A DNA stretch of 64,000 nt from a virus, in IMG/VR virus record IMGVR_UViG_3300047483_000537, positions 1-64,000 of that record, one strand, 5' to 3'. The position numbers and the translations under genes were made by a program. Of this stretch, positions 36,531 to 43,400 are shown in pieces; positions within the stretch are counted from its first letter, which is position 1; each line of letters opens with the position of its first letter. A model generated the notes under the pieces. That model saw only the letters and a program-made list of their open reading frames with translations. It was not told the DNA's origin and did not search any database.

Positions 36531-36716
36531 TTACTTAGCCTGTTTGTCCGGTACTTTAGTACCTTCTAACTTCTTGTGTACTTTGACGTCTTTACAAACT
36601 TCCTTGACTTTTTTAGTTTTAGGATCGGTTTGCTCTACACAAACTTTCTTTGTTTCCGCAGCAAAAATGCTGGCGCCAAAGCAAGTTAATGCTACTGCTA
36701 AAATTATTGATTTCAT
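36531..36716 (-). CDS. Small exported protein
   Basis: Signal peptide, Cys pair, K-rich. Confidence 0.65.
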   Translation of the reverse strand: MKSIILAVALTCFGASIFAAETKKVCVEQTDPKTKKVKEVCKDVKVHKKLEGTKVPDKQAK

Positions 36717-37172
36717 TTAAATCTCCGGTTGAGGTGCTGGTTGAGGTGCTGGCTTACCATTAATCATACGAACTTCCATTACTGCGGTACCGTTAAACCC
36801 TGCTGTAGTAGATAGTCCTGGTGAAAAAGTAGGCTCCTGTCTGGGAGGTACATAGCTGGTTTTTGCAGCTGCTGCGGCGTTATCTTGTGCTTGCTTCATT
36901 AATGCGATTGAAGCATCAACTTCTTCTTTACTGCCGCCTGCCAACATAATTCCCGATAACGTGCCTGTTAAAAATGTAGCAATTGGTACAATTAGTTCAA
37001 AAAACTTTTGATCAATAGGACTAATAGCATTTAGTGGTTGTGTTACAAAGATTAGGCTGTAAAGCACAACAAAAACAATTCCTGTTAGTGTAAGTGCCAA
37101 GCACACACCAATAAAGAATTTAAGACGAGCCATCAATTGCTCGTCTGTGTATAAGATAACATTATTTTGCAC
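36717..37172 (-). CDS. Two-TM membrane protein (possible holin)
   Basis: Two TM helices; ATFLTGTLSGIML. Confidence 0.65.
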   Translation of the reverse strand: MQNNVILYTDEQLMARLKFFIGVCLALTLTGIVFVVLYSLIFVTQPLNAISPIDQKFFELIVPIATFLTGTLSGIMLAGGSKEEVDASIALMKQAQDNAAAAAKTSYVPPRQEPTFSPGLSTTAGFNGTAVMEVRMINGKPAPQPAPQPEI

Positions 37173-37431
37173 AAGTAACTCCTGTGGTTGGTGTGGGTGT
37201 GGCTGCCGCTGGCGTTGCCTGAGGGTCTATACGTGGGTCTCGTTGACCTTTAAAAACGTGGTCTGGGCATGTGCGAGTTACATCACAGATAGGTCGCTTG
37301 CACTGAGGTGTATCCCAGTTTTCTGGATTTTGACATGGGTAACGAAAACGATCTCCACCAAAAAATGCAAGTGCAACTGGTAGTATTAATAATACTCCTA
37401 GCCACTTAAATAGTTTTAAATCTACATTCAT
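37162..37431 (-). CDS. Membrane-anchored Cys-rich protein
   Basis: DRFRYPCQNP.NW...C..P.C....TCP. Confidence 0.65.
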   Translation of the reverse strand: MNVDLKLFKWLGVLLILPVALAFFGGDRFRYPCQNPENWDTPQCKRPICDVTRTCPDHVFKGQRDPRIDPQATPAAATPTPTTGVTCAK

Positions 37432-37432
37432 A

Positions 37433-37996
37433 TTATTTTCCTGCTAGTGGATTGTCGATTGCTTTTTGAATCTTATCATCAACACTTTTATTTAAGCGTT
37501 CTAGTTTTGTTTCTAAATCGCGCTTTAATTTGTCCATGTCATCTCTGTTACGATCTAAACTATTACGCAAGTCTTTTTGAGCTGTTTTTAAATCTTGATC
37601 AGTTTCTCGCTGAGCCTGCTTAACGCTTCGCTCTATTTGTTCGGTTACGCTCTCATTACGACGTAGATCAGTTTTAAGATCATTTTTTATATCGCGAGTA
37701 TAGTCACTGGTTTTTTGCGAGTTTTCTTCAATAACAGCTAACCGCTTGTCAAATTCACTAAGATCTGGAGCCGAGTATTCGGCAATCTTTTTCTTCATGC
37801 TCTGGTAGTCTTTGTAAACTTCAAAAGCACCGTATAGTCCGCCCAATGTAGAGCTAACAATTGTAAAAGCTACCATTAATTTAGCAGGAGTAAATTCATA
37901 TCCGCCAATACTAATAACGGTATCTTTACTAGCATATTTTTTAGCGGCTGCTTCTAGTTCAGCAACTTTTTTGTCTATATTTTTATCATCAGACAT
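37433..37996 (-). CDS. Membrane-anchored coiled-coil protein
   Basis: TM helix, long heptads, C-terminal KAIDNPL. Confidence 0.7.
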   Translation of the reverse strand: MSDDKNIDKKVAELEAAAKKYASKDTVISIGGYEFTPAKLMVAFTIVSSTLGGLYGAFEVYKDYQSMKKKIAEYSAPDLSEFDKRLAVIEENSQKTSDYTRDIKNDLKTDLRRNESVTEQIERSVKQAQRETDQDLKTAQKDLRNSLDRNRDDMDKLKRDLETKLERLNKSVDDKIQKAIDNPLAGK

Positions 37997-38004
37997 TATA
38001 CCTC

Positions 38005-38415
38005 CTATTTGTTCTCAAATTTTAAATTTTTGAGATTTTCCAGCTCTCGCTCTAGTTTTTGAATTTCTATACGTTTTTTTCGCAGTTCCAACTGGTAAAG
38101 CTCATTACAATCTAGTCGATCTTTTGGAGCTCCTATTGGTATAGTAATTCTTCCGTAAACACCGACATTTCTGCTCGGATCATTTGTAGCAGTACTAACA
38201 ATAGTAGTATCTCTATTTATAACACCTACTACGCCAAACTCAACGTTAGTACTAGAACCTATAGCCATTGAGCAGTCAAGACCATTGGCACGAAAGCTAT
38301 CGGATTGATAACTACTGTACGAACCTGGTAGTGCTAAATTTAGTGAACCTGTTTGAGCATTTACTATTGAAGTTCCTAACAAGCAAATAAATAAGAGGTA
38401 CTTGTTAATATTCAT
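38005..38415 (-). CDS. Exported protein: Cys-beta-hairpin-Cys + coiled coil
   Basis: Signal peptide; VEFGVVGVI...VGVYGRITIPIG; DCNELYQLEL. Confidence 0.7.
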   Translation of the reverse strand: MNINKYLLFICLLGTSIVNAQTGSLNLALPGSYSSYQSDSFRANGLDCSMAIGSSTNVEFGVVGVINRDTTIVSTATNDPSRNVGVYGRITIPIGAPKDRLDCNELYQLELRKKRIEIQKLERELENLKNLKFENK

Positions 38416-38801
38416 GGTTTAACTTTTGAACAAATTTTACTAGCTATAAGGCTCTGTCTAGTGTTATTTCGAAACAGTCTAGATTCTGTACATATATACA
38501 CCACACGTTTAACATCTTGAGTTTTAACATATATATCTATATTTTTAGTCTCAAGATATTCTACACGTAAAATCTTGCTATCGGAACTAGCAAAAGTTAC
38601 AGGCCGCCAATCTTCATCAAATACACCAAGCTCATAGTAAGAAACCTCTTGTCGCTTGTTAAATAGTTCCATTTTTGTTTGCATTACTCCGTCTATAAAT
38701 GACGTCTCAAACTTAGGATAAGTAGGAGTGAACTGGTGAGCAGAAACCTGCCCACCAAATAAAAATAGTACAAACACTAATAAAGTGTAGTAAAAACGCA
38801 T
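38412..38801 (-). CDS. Exported Ig-like protein, possible pilus-chaperone-like
   Basis: Signal peptide; MELFNKR..VSYYE, YICTES, SKICSK. Confidence 0.5.
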   Translation of the reverse strand: MRFYYTLLVFVLFLFGGQVSAHQFTPTYPKFETSFIDGVMQTKMELFNKRQEVSYYELGVFDEDWRPVTFASSDSKILRVEYLETKNIDIYVKTQDVKRVVYICTESRLFRNNTRQSLIASKICSKVKP

Positions 38802-38805
38802 TATA

Positions 38806-39303
38806 TTACAGAGCTATACACTCCGCTAACACTACAGCTCGATACTCTCCTGCAGGGAAAGATTTATCGTAGCCGTATTCTGCTTTTGATGTTGCGGCAA
38901 ACCAAACAGTACCTGGTACAGTTAAATTGATTTCGGTAATATTATTATATACGCGCTTGTTAGTGGTATAGGCTGACATAGCTGGATCTGTAACACGGCT
39001 TACAGTAACGGCACCTGCCCAATTTACAACATCCGTTAATCCTGGACTTGAAGTAAATGCATTTGGCGTTGTTATTGTTGCTTTGTAGTATCCTGCTTGA
39101 ACTACGTCATAGCGAATAACAGCTGGAGCACCACCGTCTACGGCGGCCGTGCTTAAGACATTTGGTGTAGGGTTACCATAAATACCTACTGTATCTGTGT
39201 TAATAACACATTTAGAAGATACAACTCCACGGATTGGCACTTCGGCTGAATTTACGCCGAATGAGATAGCTAGTGCCATTGCTAATAGTATCGATTTAAT
39301 CAT
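38806..39303 (-). CDS. Exported pilin-like protein (chaperone-usher/SCPU subunit-like)
   Basis: Signal peptide; I.G.V.SKC.I near N-terminus; C-terminal PAGEYRAVV. Confidence 0.55.
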   Translation of the reverse strand: MIKSILLAMALAISFGVNSAEVPIRGVVSSKCVINTDTVGIYGNPTPNVLSTAAVDGGAPAVIRYDVVQAGYYKATITTPNAFTSSPGLTDVVNWAGAVTVSRVTDPAMSAYTTNKRVYNNITEINLTVPGTVWFAATSKAEYGYDKSFPAGEYRAVVLAECIAL

Positions 39304-40150
39304 TTCTTGGTCCTCTGAGATTATATTGTGACTCAACCATTGTATTATGCAACTGCTGCTGGCTTAGATTTAGTCTTTGACTATTTCGGCTGTCGGGCAG
39401 AACTTTGTCCCTATACTTTATGGTTTCTTGATAAACACCACCAGGTAAAGCTACTGTGTATAGTTTAAAATCTGGTATATTATTTAGTGCTTCAAGTGCA
39501 GCGGCTTGAGCAGCTGCTTGTGCAGTTATCAAAGAGTTGCTGCTCTTATTGTCTTTAAGCTTCTTTTCTTTCGGCTCAGTTAATCCGAAACGACGATTTG
39601 TTTCTAGGGCTTCTTCACTATCATAGCTGTACTTAGCAAATTGTGGCAATGTGTCAGAGTTTAGTTCTGGTAATTTTGTTTGCGGTAATTTATAGTTTGG
39701 ACAACTTGTGTCAGTAACGGGCTCTAATTTACAAGTATCATACCTATACCCATAGCTTACAAAAGGGTCTGTGACACTGCCTTGTCCTTGAACAGTGATT
39801 TCTCCACGACCCCAGCTTGTAACCGGAATATTATCAACTGGTACTATTTTTGTTATAGTATTTCCAGGCCTTGCTGTCCAATCGTCCACACTACGAAAAA
39901 CATATCCGTTGCCATTTGTATGAAGGTTTTGTATACTAACCACCATTGGATCTTCTGTATTTTTAACAGTAGTATATCGGTAATTAACACTGTTTACTGT
40001 TAACCCTGTGTACTGTGGAAGTACTTTGGTCATAGTCCACGATAAACCAAAAGCGGCGGCATTTGAAGTTTTATCAGTAATAGTTTCAGAGTAAGAGTAG
40101 CAAGAGCAGAACCATAAGGCCACCACCACCAAGTAGTGTTTTAGTTTCAT
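39296..40150 (-). CDS. Exported beta-rich protein (possible adhesin/tip)
   Basis: Signal peptide; beta-rich N-terminal domain, DTC..P.TD.SCP.Y. Confidence 0.55.
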   Translation of the reverse strand: MKLKHYLVVVALWFCSCYSYSETITDKTSNAAAFGLSWTMTKVLPQYTGLTVNSVNYRYTTVKNTEDPMVVSIQNLHTNGNGYVFRSVDDWTARPGNTITKIVPVDNIPVTSWGRGEITVQGQGSVTDPFVSYGYRYDTCKLEPVTDTSCPNYKLPQTKLPELNSDTLPQFAKYSYDSEEALETNRRFGLTEPKEKKLKDNKSSNSLITAQAAAQAAALEALNNIPDFKLYTVALPGGVYQETIKYRDKVLPDSRNSQRLNLSQQQLHNTMVESQYNLRGPRND

Positions 40151-40631
40151 TGCTTATACCTCCACTGTTTGTTTTGGTACTTGGCTGTAGGCCTTCATTA
40201 GCCTTCCAAGCAGCACGTGCTTCCGAACCAATCGACCCGTCAAATGGACAAGGGGTACCTGCCATCATCATAGCATCAAACACTCGTCTGTCTTGGCATA
40301 GCGTGCTTACCGCAGCTACTTTCATACCCATGTCATAAAGTGTTTTTGATAATTTTAGTCGTTCACAATTAAGGTCCACTACTGTAGCACCAGCACTAAT
40401 ACCCAGGATTTGAGTTTGTACAGCACCGGCTACACCAACAGTACACAAGTCACTATTGGCTGTATTAATAGTAGGACTAATAGCGGATGCTGGTGGTGAT
40501 TTAATAGTGCTGTTACTATCGGATTTAGTAGTAACAGTGCTATTGGTATTTACTACTGCATCTTGAGCTAATACTCCACTTGCAAATAGTACTAGAAGTA
40601 GTATTGCTACAAAATATTTAAGTTGAAGCAA
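40086..40631 (-). CDS. Exported Cys-rich protein with C-terminal hydrophobic tail
   Basis: Signal peptide; SPP.SAISP, DLC...GAVQTQILGISAG...NCERLK, LCQD.RV, GTPCP. Confidence 0.7.
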   Translation of the reverse strand: MLQLKYFVAILLLVLFASGVLAQDAVVNTNSTVTTKSDSNSTIKSPPASAISPTINTANSDLCTVGVAGAVQTQILGISAGATVVDLNCERLKLSKTLYDMGMKVAAVSTLCQDRRVFDAMMMAGTPCPFDGSIGSEARAAWKANEGLQPSTKTNSGGISNETKTLLGGGGLMVLLLLLLL

Positions 40632-40632
40632 C

Positions 40633-41259
40633 TTATCCTCCTAGTACATGCAATGCATGTTCGTAGTGTTTTTTCCGATCTTCTAGGCCGATAGTGCCGC
40701 CATTAATGCGCTTAGTTAGCATTAGAATATCACCAGCATCTGCCCATTGATTTAGTTTATTGGTTTCCCAAAACCAGCAGGCTGATTGTGCTGCACCTTC
40801 AAATGTTTCCAAGTATTCTGCAGCTTCTTCTACACTAATACCTAGTGAGGCTGCAAACCAAGTGTAGTTATCCTTGCCAGTTAACTGAATTAGGCCTTTA
40901 CCTGCAAAACGCCAGCCATCACCGGATTCTGGAGGTCCGTTGCCCATGCGATTAGCATATACTAAGTTGGCAATTGCTTGTTGCTTGTTGGGCATTGTGG
41001 CATATTTCTGTGCCATTTCATCCGTGGGAAAATACTTGGGAAATATTTTTCGTAGCGTGACTGCTTTGTAGTTTAGATTTTCACGTAGCGCAGTAAAGTT
41101 TCCGGATTCGTGAGCACACTGTGCTACAAAAGCAGCAATACGACGCGGAGTGTTAATCTCGTAGTCTGGCAGTAATTGAGCTAACGCCTGATGCCACTGT
41201 TTGACATAAGGGTTTTTAGGGATCAATTGTTGCAATTGAGATAATGTTAGTTCTGTCAC
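40633..41259 (-). CDS. Endolysin, glycoside hydrolase family 19
   Basis: AQCAHES, ENLNY, YANRMGN, DGWRF.G.GLIQLTG, INGG..GL.DR. Confidence 0.92.
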   Translation of the reverse strand: MTELTLSQLQQLIPKNPYVKQWHQALAQLLPDYEINTPRRIAAFVAQCAHESGNFTALRENLNYKAVTLRKIFPKYFPTDEMAQKYATMPNKQQAIANLVYANRMGNGPPESGDGWRFAGKGLIQLTGKDNYTWFAASLGISVEEAAEYLETFEGAAQSACWFWETNKLNQWADAGDILMLTKRINGGTIGLEDRKKHYEHALHVLGG

Positions 41260-41522
41260 TTTAGTCCCTTATGGATAAGTTGTTGTTGTTGATACCACTG
41301 CTGCCAGGCTTCTAATTTAACTACACACTGATAGTATTGTGTATAGTTACGATTAATAATTTGAGCTACTTGACTCAACGTAGGGTTTTCTGCAAGAGCT
41401 TCAAGTTCTGGGCAAGGTTGCTGGCTTTGCAGACCTGGGGGCTCCGGCCACTTCTGGGTAACGGGTACAACTGTGGAGCACCCAGTTAAAAATAGTGTTA
41501 ATACTAGCAGTGCAATTTTCAT
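41256..41522 (-). CDS. o-spanin (lipoprotein)
   Basis: Lipobox LTGC, Pro-rich, adjacent to endolysin. Confidence 0.8.
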   Translation of the reverse strand: MKIALLVLTLFLTGCSTVVPVTQKWPEPPGLQSQQPCPELEALAENPTLSQVAQIINRNYTQYYQCVVKLEAWQQWYQQQQLIHKGLK

Positions 41523-41938
41523 TTAGGTGCCTTTGCTGCTAAGTTATGCGCTGTAACAAACTCAACAGGTATCTGACAGCCTGAGTCGTGTTTTGTTATT
41601 TCGCGGGTAATATATTCAACTGTGGCTTCACCACGTTGTTTTATAATCTGAGTTTTAGTAACTACACGCTCTTTTATAACTTCATTTACTTGTTGTGACT
41701 TTGCTTCTGCAACTTCAACTTTATGTTGCAAATCTTTGGCGGCTTGTTTCCATACACCATTAGCATATAACAGTCCAATTATAAAAATTATTACGCATGC
41801 CAGTATACCACTAACAATTTTGACAGGCAGTTGATATGTTTTTATAGGAACCAAATGCGATAAAAAATATCCGGAAAATCCAGCTATTAATAACAACCCC
41901 CACAACCAATGTGGAAAAATTTCTAAAATCCAAAACAT
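41519..41938 (-). CDS. i-spanin
   Basis: N-terminal TM, helical periplasmic part, C-terminal Cys; precedes o-spanin. Confidence 0.75.
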   Translation of the reverse strand: MFWILEIFPHWLWGLLLIAGFSGYFLSHLVPIKTYQLPVKIVSGILACVIIFIIGLLYANGVWKQAAKDLQHKVEVAEAKSQQVNEVIKERVVTKTQIIKQRGEATVEYITREITKHDSGCQIPVEFVTAHNLAAKAPK

Positions 41939-41961: not shown

Positions 41962-42720
41962 TTACGATTTTATTAATCGTATTACCCTCCAACTTACATC
42001 CAGCTCCCACCATTTTTCACCAAAATTGGGTCTGCCAGGAAACCGGTGATGATTATTATGCCAGCCTTCGCCCCACGAGAAAAAAGCCAATAAAGGATTA
42101 TTTCTACTATCGTCGGAGGTTGCATATCGTTGCATACCGTAAGTGTGTCCAAAAAAGTTAGCTGCAGCGCTGCCTAAAAAAACAAATGCCACTGGTACAA
42201 AGTGTCCAAAGATTACGCCGTTGAGTCCAAATAGCGCATACAAAGCCAGCACCCACACAATATGCAATGCTAAAAAATACTTGTGTAGTATGCGATAAAA
42301 CGGATCACGAAGCATTCTAAATACGGTTTTGCTGCGCGTTTTTTCGGAAGTTTTATAATTAAGCATCCACATATTTAGCGCACCGTTTTTAGGCGAATGA
42401 GGATCGCGGCTAGTATCAGAAAACTTATGATGATTGATGTGTTCAGCAACCCAGGAAATTGCACTACCAGTACCTGCCAAATGACCAAAAAACGCAAACA
42501 CGCGCTCTTTCCAAATAGACATTTTAAAACTATTGTGGGTAAGGTACCTGTGAAAAGTTACTGCAATACCTAAACATCCATATAAAAAGTAAAGCGCTAC
42601 TGCAAGTGCCCAATGTGCTGCAGAGCCTCCTTGGTACAAAGCGTACGCAAGCATTGCAGTAGAGATCGCCCCAACAATCCTAAACTTTACAGGGGTCATT
42701 GTAAAAAATGAATTAATCAT
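41962..42720 (-). CDS. Membrane fatty-acid (delta-9 type) desaturase
   Basis: His boxes HRYLTH, HINHH, GEGWHNNHH; DPHSP. Confidence 0.92.
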   Translation of the reverse strand: MINSFFTMTPVKFRIVGAISTAMLAYALYQGGSAAHWALAVALYFLYGCLGIAVTFHRYLTHNSFKMSIWKERVFAFFGHLAGTGSAISWVAEHINHHKFSDTSRDPHSPKNGALNMWMLNYKTSEKTRSKTVFRMLRDPFYRILHKYFLALHIVWVLALYALFGLNGVIFGHFVPVAFVFLGSAAANFFGHTYGMQRYATSDDSRNNPLLAFFSWGEGWHNNHHRFPGRPNFGEKWWELDVSWRVIRLIKS

Positions 42721-43400
42721 TTGGTTCTCTTTATAAGATGATCTCGAATCATATCTCTGGCTTGGGCTTTTGTTTCTGGAGTTTTGATATTTAACTTTTT
42801 TACTGCTGCTTGTCGACGAGCTAACTTTTCCTTGAACACAGCATCTACAACTGTCCAGACCATAGTGCGATTTTTACCATAAGGCGTATCTGCACTGTCT
42901 CCACGCTGTAAGTATTCAGAAAAGTTCATGGTCTGTGGAACTTTGTAGCAAACACCATTGTTTTGATTTTTGCAAGTTTCACAGATTGTGGTATGTGGTT
43001 TTACATAAAACCGCCAGTTAGCCTTGCGAAAGCCATGCATAAACAGTGTAGTAGTACCAAGGCTTACACCGGTAAGTCTGTGAGTCTGTTTGTAACTTAA
43101 ACGCGCAAAGTTCCACTTTTTTGTAGTACGTTGTTCCGTATAGTTAATACTTTCGGTATACTCACCTTGAAGTAGTAAACTAACACTATTCCAAGGATGG
43201 CTATGCTCGTCTTCACCATCAGGTTCTGAACTTTTAAAAATATGTATATAAGCGTTTGGTAAGTAGTCTAACCATCTTGGATTATCCATGCGATCGCGGT
43301 ATAAAAGATAGTATCTATGCCAGTAAACTTTCCCATAGGCATCAACAAGTGCCTCATGCCTGCCAAGTTTTTCAAGCAGCATTAATAAAAATTTAAGCAT
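42717..43400 (-). CDS. Cupin-like protein
   Basis: YIH.F..S.PD..HSHPW..S.LL.G.Y.E ... THR; C-terminal CxxC. Confidence 0.65.
   Translation of the reverse strand: MLKFLLMLLEKLGRHEALVDAYGKVYWHRYYLLYRDRMDNPRWLDYLPNAYIHIFKSSEPDGEDEHSHPWNSVSLLLQGEYTESINYTEQRTTKKWNFARLSYKQTHRLTGVSLGTTTLFMHGFRKANWRFYVKPHTTICETCKNQNNGVCYKVPQTMNFSEYLQRGDSADTPYGKNRTMVWTVVDAVFKEKLARRQAAVKKLNIKTPETKAQARDMIRDHLIKRTK

Follow-up and report, generated by a model that had tools for sequence, protein, structure and literature searches.

A conserved module of exported proteins in phage lysis cassettes

What kind of structure would a phage build from nine consecutive genes whose products all appear destined for the host envelope, and why would these genes follow its endolysin gene? 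The question is raised by a locus in the IMG/VR virus record IMGVR_UViG_3300047483_000537. The window analyzed here comprises the first 64,000 nucleotides (nt) of this 96.6-kb record. The locus is formed by nine open reading frames (ORFs), g1 to g9, on the minus strand (positions 36531-40631), located directly 3' of a gene for a GH19-type endolysin. A sequence-only reading had described these genes as a pilin-chaperone-adhesin set with which a lytic phage might build a pilus or another surface structure. Our analysis leads to a different conclusion: the nine genes are a Sec-exported envelope module embedded in a phage lysis cassette, and not a chaperone-usher pilus operon. As to function, we favor, with slightly less than even confidence, an envelope-bridging complex that acts at the outer-membrane step of lysis.

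The nine-gene block and its setting

The window encodes a siphovirus-type tail module, with a tape measure protein of 2269 amino acids (aa) and tail-fiber proteins, as well as DNA polymerase A, DnaB, and SbcC. The late genes on the minus strand are arranged in the order: tail-fiber genes, two small ORFs, a 227-aa ORF, a fatty-acid desaturase gene (PF00487), an i-spanin-like gene, a gene for an o-spanin-like lipoprotein (phrog_456), the GH19-type endolysin gene (phrog_181), the nine genes of the block, and phoH. The g1 start lies 1 nt after the endolysin stop; inside the block, neighboring genes overlap by up to 65 nt (g1/g2) or are separated by up to 8 nt, and g1-g9 look co-transcribed, as judged from the sequence. 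For g3 the most likely start is the ATG at 39303 (MIKS...), as in all homologs; the TTG at 39336 is not favored.

A crude hydropathy scan detected hydrophobic N-terminal cores in g1-g5, g7, and g9, an additional C-terminal hydrophobic tail on g1, and two membrane segments in g8. When cleavage sites were assigned by simple home-made rules, from AXA-like motifs and their conservation, cleavable signal peptides were predicted for g1-g5 and, probably, for g9, and the predicted N-terminus of g7 is a signal or an anchor. In g6 a hydrophobic segment at approximately residues 38-60 is present in every aligned homolog. Thus, the ORF coordinates, hydropathy, and homolog alignments confirm that nine tightly coupled genes each encode a signal peptide or a membrane segment. 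Strongly hydrophobic stretches occur in 16 of the 77 ORFs of the window, and because 10 of these 16 fall between 36.5 and 42.7 kb, that is, in a stretch of ~6 kb, the concentration is not a matter of chance. The paired cysteines reported earlier for many of the products are likewise found, and they are conserved in the alignments of g1-g5, with four conserved cysteines in g1, two in the mature part of g2, and two each in g3, g4, and g5.

The missing usher, also pointed out in the sequence-only reading, is indeed missing: the largest ORF of the cluster has 284 aa, so none is of usher size, no Pfam match was obtained for the nine proteins, and no usher was seen in the 86 related loci described below. 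More generally, scans of all nine proteins against Pfam, NCBIfam, and PADLOC gave no match beyond coiled-coil noise, PHROGs returned only families of unassigned function, and profile searches against PDB sequences with g1-g5 gave nothing significant. We found no published description of these families or of exported pilin-like phage proteins, within an incomplete coverage of the literature.

Conservation of the module and its linkage to lysis genes

Related loci were collected from IMG/VR by tblastn and profile searches, with flanks of at most 7 kb. The genes g1-g2-g3-g4-g5-g6 are found in constant order in 61 loci, with identities down to 26-60%. A second architecture, in which a long g2 is followed directly by g6 and g3-g5 are lacking, is observed in about 35 loci. 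De-duplication left 52 loci with g3-g5 and 34 without, giving 86 distinct loci, where g6 is directly 3' of g5 or, if g3-g5 are lacking, of g2. The synteny in IMG/VR that had been proposed as a check is therefore observed, the same gene order being kept across loci. The block has three layers: an ancient core (g1, g2, and g6), an optional insert (g3-g5), and clade-specific genes (g7-g9). Only close relatives have the block together with g7-g9, the GH19 endolysin, the Rz-like pair, and phoH; the i-spanin-like gene is kept upstream in 13-14 of these. This distribution does not support a pilus operon, as the "pilin-chaperone" trio g3-g5 is only an optional insert, the most conserved genes are g1, g2, and g6, and the block travels with holin and endolysin genes.

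Linkage to lysis genes was counted with five seed endolysins over the 86 distinct loci. An endolysin-like gene is located within 3 kb of the block, on either side, in 31 of them (within 1 kb in 25 of these 31), and in 20 of the 47 loci that have at least 3 kb of flank on both sides. By our own rough estimate, one endolysin gene placed at random in a genome of 40-150 kb would give 10-15%. The endolysins adjoining the block come from three unrelated families.

The composition of the cassettes varies between lineages. In the clade of the window, the order is the Rz-like pair, the GH19 endolysin, the block, g7, g8, and g9. In a podovirus-like clade (L028, L024, L031, L032, and L025), the genes after g6 encode, in this order, a membrane protein of 62 aa, a holin-like protein of 158 aa, and an endolysin resembling T4 lysozyme. 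The L095 clade, without g3-g5, has g1, g2, g6, a membrane protein, a GH19 endolysin, and a small membrane protein. Membrane proteins and spanin-like lipoproteins come after g6 in L037, and a SleB-like hydrolase is encoded 1.4 kb upstream in loci of the L022 type. Two named phages provide further examples: a Pfam-confirmed PF00959 lysozyme lies ~750 bp past g6 in the freshwater podophage MW202481, and in Vibrio phage Ceto the g3-g5 trio is followed by a lipoprotein gene, a holin gene (phrog_860), and an M15 endolysin gene. The block remains unchanged while the neighboring holin-like genes fall into at least four unrelated families (g8, phrog_1544, phrog_32327, and a type of 155-169 aa).

The window itself has an endolysin gene and an Rz/Rz1-like pair. 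The endolysin (40633..41259, minus strand) is GH19/chitinase-like and without a signal peptide (phrog_181 endolysin, 3e-75; weak PF00182 match). The o-spanin-like outer-membrane lipoprotein (41256..41522, minus strand; 88 aa) has the lipobox LTGC and matches phrog_456, "Rz-like spanin", at 6e-7. The i-spanin-like protein (41519..41938, minus strand; 139 aa; phrog_4952) has N-terminal membrane segments by hydropathy, a coiled coil, and a C-terminal Cys motif. Near the block, lipobox-containing ORFs are lacking in the majority of loci: a scan of 3.5 kb upstream and 4.5 kb downstream with home-made rules detected none in 33 of the 35 loci without g3-g5 and in 44 of the 61 loci with g3-g5, and a relaxed scan of both strands in 15 loci gave no credible candidate.

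Parts of the module also occur in cultured phages. The g3-g5-like trio alone is found in Vibrio siphophages and T5-like phages, with profile matches in Ceto, D93, and 51E28.4, and g5 has matches in 182 Vibrio phage records. Homologs of g1 and g6 occur together in Pelagibacter phages HTVC115P and the myophage Mosig (where the g6 match is marginal, E 1.3e-3), in Roseobacter phage CRP-810, and in MW202481. By profile, g1 alone is found in Pelagibacter phage HTVC202P and Ralstonia phage RSP15, and for five further records, three pelagiphages and Roseobacter phage CRP-207 among them, the match to g1 comes from tblastn only. The carriers span sipho-, podo-, and myoviruses. Among cellular genomes (one each of 185,579 species), g3 is found in only three contigs of metagenome-assembled genomes, probably mis-binned phage DNA; therefore, the module is phage-restricted.

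Several observations concern the surroundings of the module. In CRP-810 the public annotations of two of its genes both look wrong: gp51 (L124:6219-6641), annotated as "lysozyme", is matched by the g6 profile at 7.6e-7 and lacks a lysozyme domain in Pfam, and gp53 (L124:4833-5588), annotated as "OmpA family protein", is a g1 homolog (1e-19) without an OmpA domain. In HTVC115P, gp46 (L044:8511-8960, minus strand) is an HlyC/RTX-toxin-type lysine acyltransferase (PF02794, 1e-15) encoded two genes past the g6-like gene, with a 685-aa Pfam-less protein in between; the same late cluster may hold a route for protein lipidation. The g5-like ORFs of Vibrio phages D93 (L002:4962-5351) and Ceto (L003:4917-5294) are not annotated as such, and in both a small lipoprotein gene (phrog_16916) overlaps the 3' end of the g5-like ORF in another frame, as in overlapped Rz/Rz1 spanin genes; D93 also has a PagP-like gene ~4 kb downstream. 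Directly upstream of g1 in six loci (L022:4160-4525 and five others), there is a gene for a small beta protein of 115-121 aa resembling outer-membrane proteins, with a signal peptide and a C-terminus of the form ...GVSFAF / GVGFNF. In the window, the fatty-acid desaturase gene (PF00487, 1e-21; 41962-42720, minus strand) and the family-less 227-aa ORF (42717-43400, minus strand) belong to the same late operon, between the tail-fiber and spanin-like genes. Finally, a near-consensus sigma-70-like site (36522-36494, minus strand; TTGACC, 17 nt, TATAAT, with an upstream TG) directly past the g9 stop and before phoH may mark the end of the late unit.

Core, insert, and clade-specific proteins

The core protein g1 (40086..40631, minus strand; 181 aa) consists of a signal peptide, a Ser/Thr/Asn-rich tract, a nearly invariant four-Cys domain, and a C-terminal hydrophobic anchor with a GGGG-L-rich tail. 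The AlphaFold2 model, based on an alignment of 88 sequences, has a predicted local distance difference test score (pLDDT) of 80-96 in the core and contains a disulfide-bracketed amphipathic beta-hairpin, four helices, and a terminal membrane helix. The two faces of the hairpin differ in mean hydropathy, 3.05 vs -0.2 in the first strand and 3.08 vs 0.38 in the second. Thus, g1 is a predicted periplasmic domain of the four-Cys, hairpin-plus-helix type on a flexible tract, in this phage with a C-terminal membrane anchor. Its model has no fold match among solved structures (Foldseek best E 0.6; VIA wide search best Z 2.6), a search of the ESM Atlas with the core gave no usable match, and longer g1 homologs carry no additional Pfam domains. 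The family comprises 1609 clusters at 50% identity and occurs in at least 600 IMG/VR stretches.

The second core protein, g2 (39296..40150, minus strand; 284 aa), has a signal peptide, a beta-rich N-terminal domain with one Cys pair, an acidic low-complexity linker, and a conserved C-terminal segment ending in ...LH..MV.SQY. In loci without g3-g5 it is far longer, 485-792 aa, with an unchanged C-terminal motif. The N-terminal part differs between lineages, and the extreme C-terminus is conserved in all of them, as it is in g6.

The third, g6 (37433..37996, minus strand; 187 aa), is a predicted inner-membrane protein with a cytoplasmic N-terminus, one weakly hydrophobic, Gly/Ser-rich membrane segment, a long periplasmic coiled coil, and an invariant C-terminal DNPLA motif. 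Homologs have 144-249 aa, with a coiled coil of 100-190 residues, and library searches yield matches of the coiled-coil type only. In two loci without g3-g5, L090 (about 10057/10710) and L115 (9803/10429), g6 genes are present as tandem duplicates.

It is the insert that had suggested a pilus. The protein g3 (38806..39303, minus strand; 165 aa) has a signal peptide, a conserved N-terminal segment, and a beta-sandwich of the immunoglobulin (Ig) type closed by a Cys32-Cys162 pair, and the pilin-like motifs pointed out earlier (RGVVSSKC ... FPAGEY) are present in it. The AlphaFold2 model (pLDDT 87) is an Ig-like beta-sandwich whose chain ends just past the last strand. The mature N-terminal segment, with an invariant I-x-G-x-V, is unstructured in the monomer model, and Vibrio-phage homologs have F-x-S/T-x-V/L as its counterpart; this segment could serve as a donor strand, which is to be taken as a lead and not as a result. 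The Foldseek list for g3 contains the chaperone-usher pilins CfaB, CupE, CsuA/B, PapK, and FimG beside staphylococcal adhesin domains, at E 2e-3 to 1e-2, with template modeling scores of 0.4-0.55 and probabilities of 0.97-1.00 for the pilins. With VIA-align, MSCRAMM N-domains, integrin calf domains, and CBM3 rank first at Z 6-7.7 (maximum 7.7), no chaperone-usher pilin is among the top 50 rows by Z, and g3 also aligns over 138 residues with donor-strand cannula fibers at Z 5.9-6.4. Against viral models only uncharacterized proteins were matched. For the pilin-like subunit of the sequence-only reading, an Ig-like fold is thus predicted and there are weak pilin matches, but the likeness is no better than to many other sandwiches. 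By sequence, no relation to a pilin family was detected: g3 has no Pfam match, and a comparison by hhalign with 28 E. coli Fimbrial domains gave a probability of 2.4%; among 1863 clusters of the g3 family at 90% identity, none has a Pfam domain.

The neighboring g4 (38412..38801, minus strand; 129 aa) has a signal peptide and a putative small all-beta domain of ~105 mature residues with one Cys pair. By sequence it does not resemble a PapD-like chaperone: it has a single domain rather than two, no Pfam match at E <= 0.1, and hhalign against 11 E. coli PapD_N domains gave a probability of 0.4%. The labels "chaperone-like" and "adhesin-like", and equally "lytic phage", are interpretations and not observations. 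At the predicted cut, the first mature residue of g4 is His in 25 of 25 aligned homologs, possibly a metal site or an N-terminal contact; the Vibrio-phage homologs lack it.

The last protein of the insert, g5 (38005..38415, minus strand; 136 aa), has a signal peptide, the N-terminal motif SLNL.LP...YQSD, a Cys-clamped amphipathic beta-hairpin with a variable tip, a coiled-coil helix, and a C-terminal FEN motif. In the hairpin, column identity is 0.79-0.81 for the strands and 0.38 for the tip, which has a length of 14-24 residues, and the mean hydropathy of the two strand faces is 2.43 vs 0.03 (first strand) and 3.58 vs -1.48 (second strand). Conserved, amphipathic strands combined with a tip that varies in both sequence and length are typical of a hairpin that spans a membrane and exposes its loop, and the predicted clamped hairpin is of a kind that can enter the outer membrane as an oligomer. 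An ESM Atlas search with g5 returned viral hypothetical clusters only. Two cases of possible paralogy, g1/g5 and g3/g4, were rejected, as the hhalign alignments cover the signal peptides only.

The clade-specific genes encode small proteins. The predicted product of g7 (37162..37431, minus strand; 89 aa) has an N-terminal signal or anchor and a Cys-rich periplasmic part, and its gene takes the first position after g6 in 15 loci. The 151-aa g8 (36717..37172, minus strand; phrog_25359, function unassigned, 1.5e-17) has two membrane segments and a Pro-rich tail. It is encoded downstream of g6 in 18 loci, at the place of the holin-like genes in other clades, and by position and topology may be a holin. 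In g9 (36531..36716, minus strand; 61 aa), which is found in 15 loci, a signal peptide precedes a short Lys-rich peptide that contains one Cys pair.

Possible functions of the module

In the favored scenario, the exported proteins would assemble late in infection into a complex that joins the inner membrane to the wall and the outer membrane, and this complex would act at the last step of lysis, when the outer membrane is breached or detached. In this phage it would act alongside the canonical Rz/Rz1 spanins, and in the many carriers where no spanins are seen it would take over their task. In the periplasm, g2 and g6 would make contact through their invariant C-termini, as the two subunits of a spanin do. 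We favor a role in outer-membrane lysis because the i-spanin-like topology of g6, the invariant ends of g2 and g6, the tether and anchor of g1, and the membrane-type hairpin of g5 all suit envelope bridging. Moreover, the block stays constant while holin and endolysin families change, as expected of spanins, which points to structures of the host envelope as the target and not to a partner from the phage.

The likeness to the two-component spanins, such as lambda Rz/Rz1, thus includes location in or beside the holin-endolysin cassette, independence of holin and endolysin type, and the i-spanin plan of g6, the latter by topology only (N-terminal membrane segment, periplasmic coiled coil, and conserved C-terminal end). 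The signal peptide at one end of g1 and the membrane anchor at the other are reminiscent of the unimolecular spanin gp11 of phage T1. However, there is no sequence relation, g6 being unrelated to the Rz families and the o-spanin-like gene of the window being separate; three to six proteins are involved rather than one or two; and the Ig-like and hairpin proteins have no spanin counterpart. According to a preprint (bioRxiv 10.1101/515445), approximately 15% of phages of Gram-negative hosts have no spanins, and other ways of outer-membrane disruption exist. An example given there is the disruptin gp28 of phage phiKT, a lysis-cassette product that serves the outer-membrane step in a phage without spanins; it is a single small cationic peptide, unlike the set of structured exported proteins described here.

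Several points weigh against this scenario. The main objection is that the clade of the window retains a canonical Rz/Rz1-like pair adjoining the block, so that in this clade the block is not a mere replacement for spanins. None of g1-g9 has a lipobox, and no means of holding g2 at the outer membrane is evident. There is no annotated lysis gene near the block in the pelagimyophage Mosig, in HTVC202P, or in Ralstonia phage RSP15. Lysis genes of T7-like and lambdoid phages adjoin tail-fiber or terminase genes in any case, the exclusion genes cor and llp occupy the same place, and part of the lysis linkage may reflect this general layout of late operons. A bolder version of the proposal is that g1-g2-g6, with or without g3-g5, form a new class of lipoprotein-independent, multi-protein phage machinery for the outer-membrane step. 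Host opening by many "spanin-less" marine phages, those infecting SAR11 and Roseobacter among them, would then have an explanation, with beta-hairpins of g5, and perhaps of g1, inserting into the outer membrane as oligomers and g6 forming the bridge from the inner membrane. We regard this version as less likely than not.

A different explanation is that, by occupying or altering the infected cell's envelope, the exported proteins block injection by other phages and prevent the loss of progeny on cell debris. Superinfection exclusion or receptor masking of this type is the mode of action of T5 Llp, T1/phi80 Cor, and T4 Imm/Sp, which are likewise small exported phage proteins without enzyme domains, encoded near tail-fiber or lysis genes of virulent phages. 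All products of the block are predicted to be exported and none has an enzyme domain; the carriers appear virulent, and the block is not found in cellular genomes. It usually lies just past the tail-fiber genes, as do cor and llp in their phages, but lysis genes, too, are normally found there. Lineages differ in the N-terminal part of g2 and in the hairpin tip of g5, as expected of protein parts facing host-specific surface molecules, and the small gene upstream of g1 in six loci is reminiscent of lom in lambda. However, phages whose tails and hosts are unrelated, from SAR11 phages to those of Roseobacter and of fresh water, carry nearly invariant g1, g3, and g6, and such constancy does not fit proteins matched to one receptor. 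The known exclusion proteins act singly, each matched to one receptor or entry step, and Llp and Cor are lipoproteins, whereas this block is multi-protein, nearly invariant, and, with three to six proteins, far above any known exclusion device. It includes no lipoprotein and shows no similarity to Llp: in the PDB-sequence search with the g4 profile, the best row was T5 Llp (8a60_B) at E = 0.76, over the signal-peptide region. PADLOC matches for the block are coiled-coil noise only. We consider exclusion unlikely.

The pilus-like features of the insert could be reconciled with the lack of an usher if g3 polymerized, or were held by g4, through beta-strand complementation and an oligomeric pore of g5 hairpins replaced the usher, giving a fiber or coat in or on the envelope. 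As in the chaperone-usher systems (Fim/Pap, CFA/I, and Csu), there is an operon of Sec-exported proteins with Cys pairs, and g3 is a pilin-sized Ig-like sandwich with a conserved N-terminal segment and a C-terminal last strand, next to a small all-beta g4. The high Foldseek probabilities for pilins, the cannula-fiber alignment, the invariant and unstructured segment of g3 with its Vibrio-phage counterpart, the end of its chain right past the last strand, the membrane-type hairpin of g5, and the autonomy of the g3-g4-g5 trio in the 182 Vibrio phage records are all consistent with such a route. But the usher (about 800 aa, PF00577) and the two-domain PapD-like chaperone (PF00345 and PF02753) are lacking, neither Pfam nor profiles relate the proteins to Fimbrial or PapD_N, and the structural likeness to pilins is weak and unspecific. 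The Cys32-Cys162 pair of g3 ties the first strand to the last, and the usual pilin disulfide is a different one. The trio is missing from about 40% of the module loci, and the genes are phage-borne and, to judge from the gene layout, probably expressed with lysis genes, which leaves an appendage little useful time. Usher-less assembly is thus quite improbable. For the same reasons, namely unspecific pilin likeness, no usher, an optional trio, and a block associated with genes for holins and endolysins, the idea that the phage puts up a surface appendage in the last minutes before lysis is weakly supported and not the most economical reading. The position inside lysis cassettes would equally suit a timing device, in which a periplasmic sensor or antiholin complex, with g6 and g1 anchored in the membrane, delays or triggers the holin in parallel to lysis inhibition by T4 RI/RIII. 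With its weak hydrophobicity and its many Gly, Ser, and Thr residues, the membrane segment of g6 resembles the releasable signal-arrest-release anchors of antiholins and some endolysins, and the small membrane proteins g7-g9 or their counterparts come after the block. A holin-binding regulator should co-vary with the holin, but the block is unchanged amid at least four unrelated holin-like families, and six exported proteins are many for a timer; hence, this explanation has a very low probability. What is left over from these four readings belongs to something else.

In summary, the module is among the commoner uncharacterized gene sets of aquatic phages, unannotated in Pfam, NCBIfam, and PHROGs, and its carriers include cultured phages of SAR11, the most abundant marine bacteria. 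The confidently modeled core of g1, unmatched among solved structures, is a possible new fold. Cultured carriers are available in Vibrio phages Ceto and 51E28.4, Roseobacter phage CRP-810, and the HTVC pelagiphages. Even as an exclusion device or as a route of assembly without an usher, the module would represent a novel type of envelope structure made by a phage. If the favored envelope-bridging role is true, a structured, Sec-exported complex encoded in the lysis cassette would be a new answer to the question of how spanin-less phages get through the outer membrane, with a bearing on carbon release by marine viral lysis.

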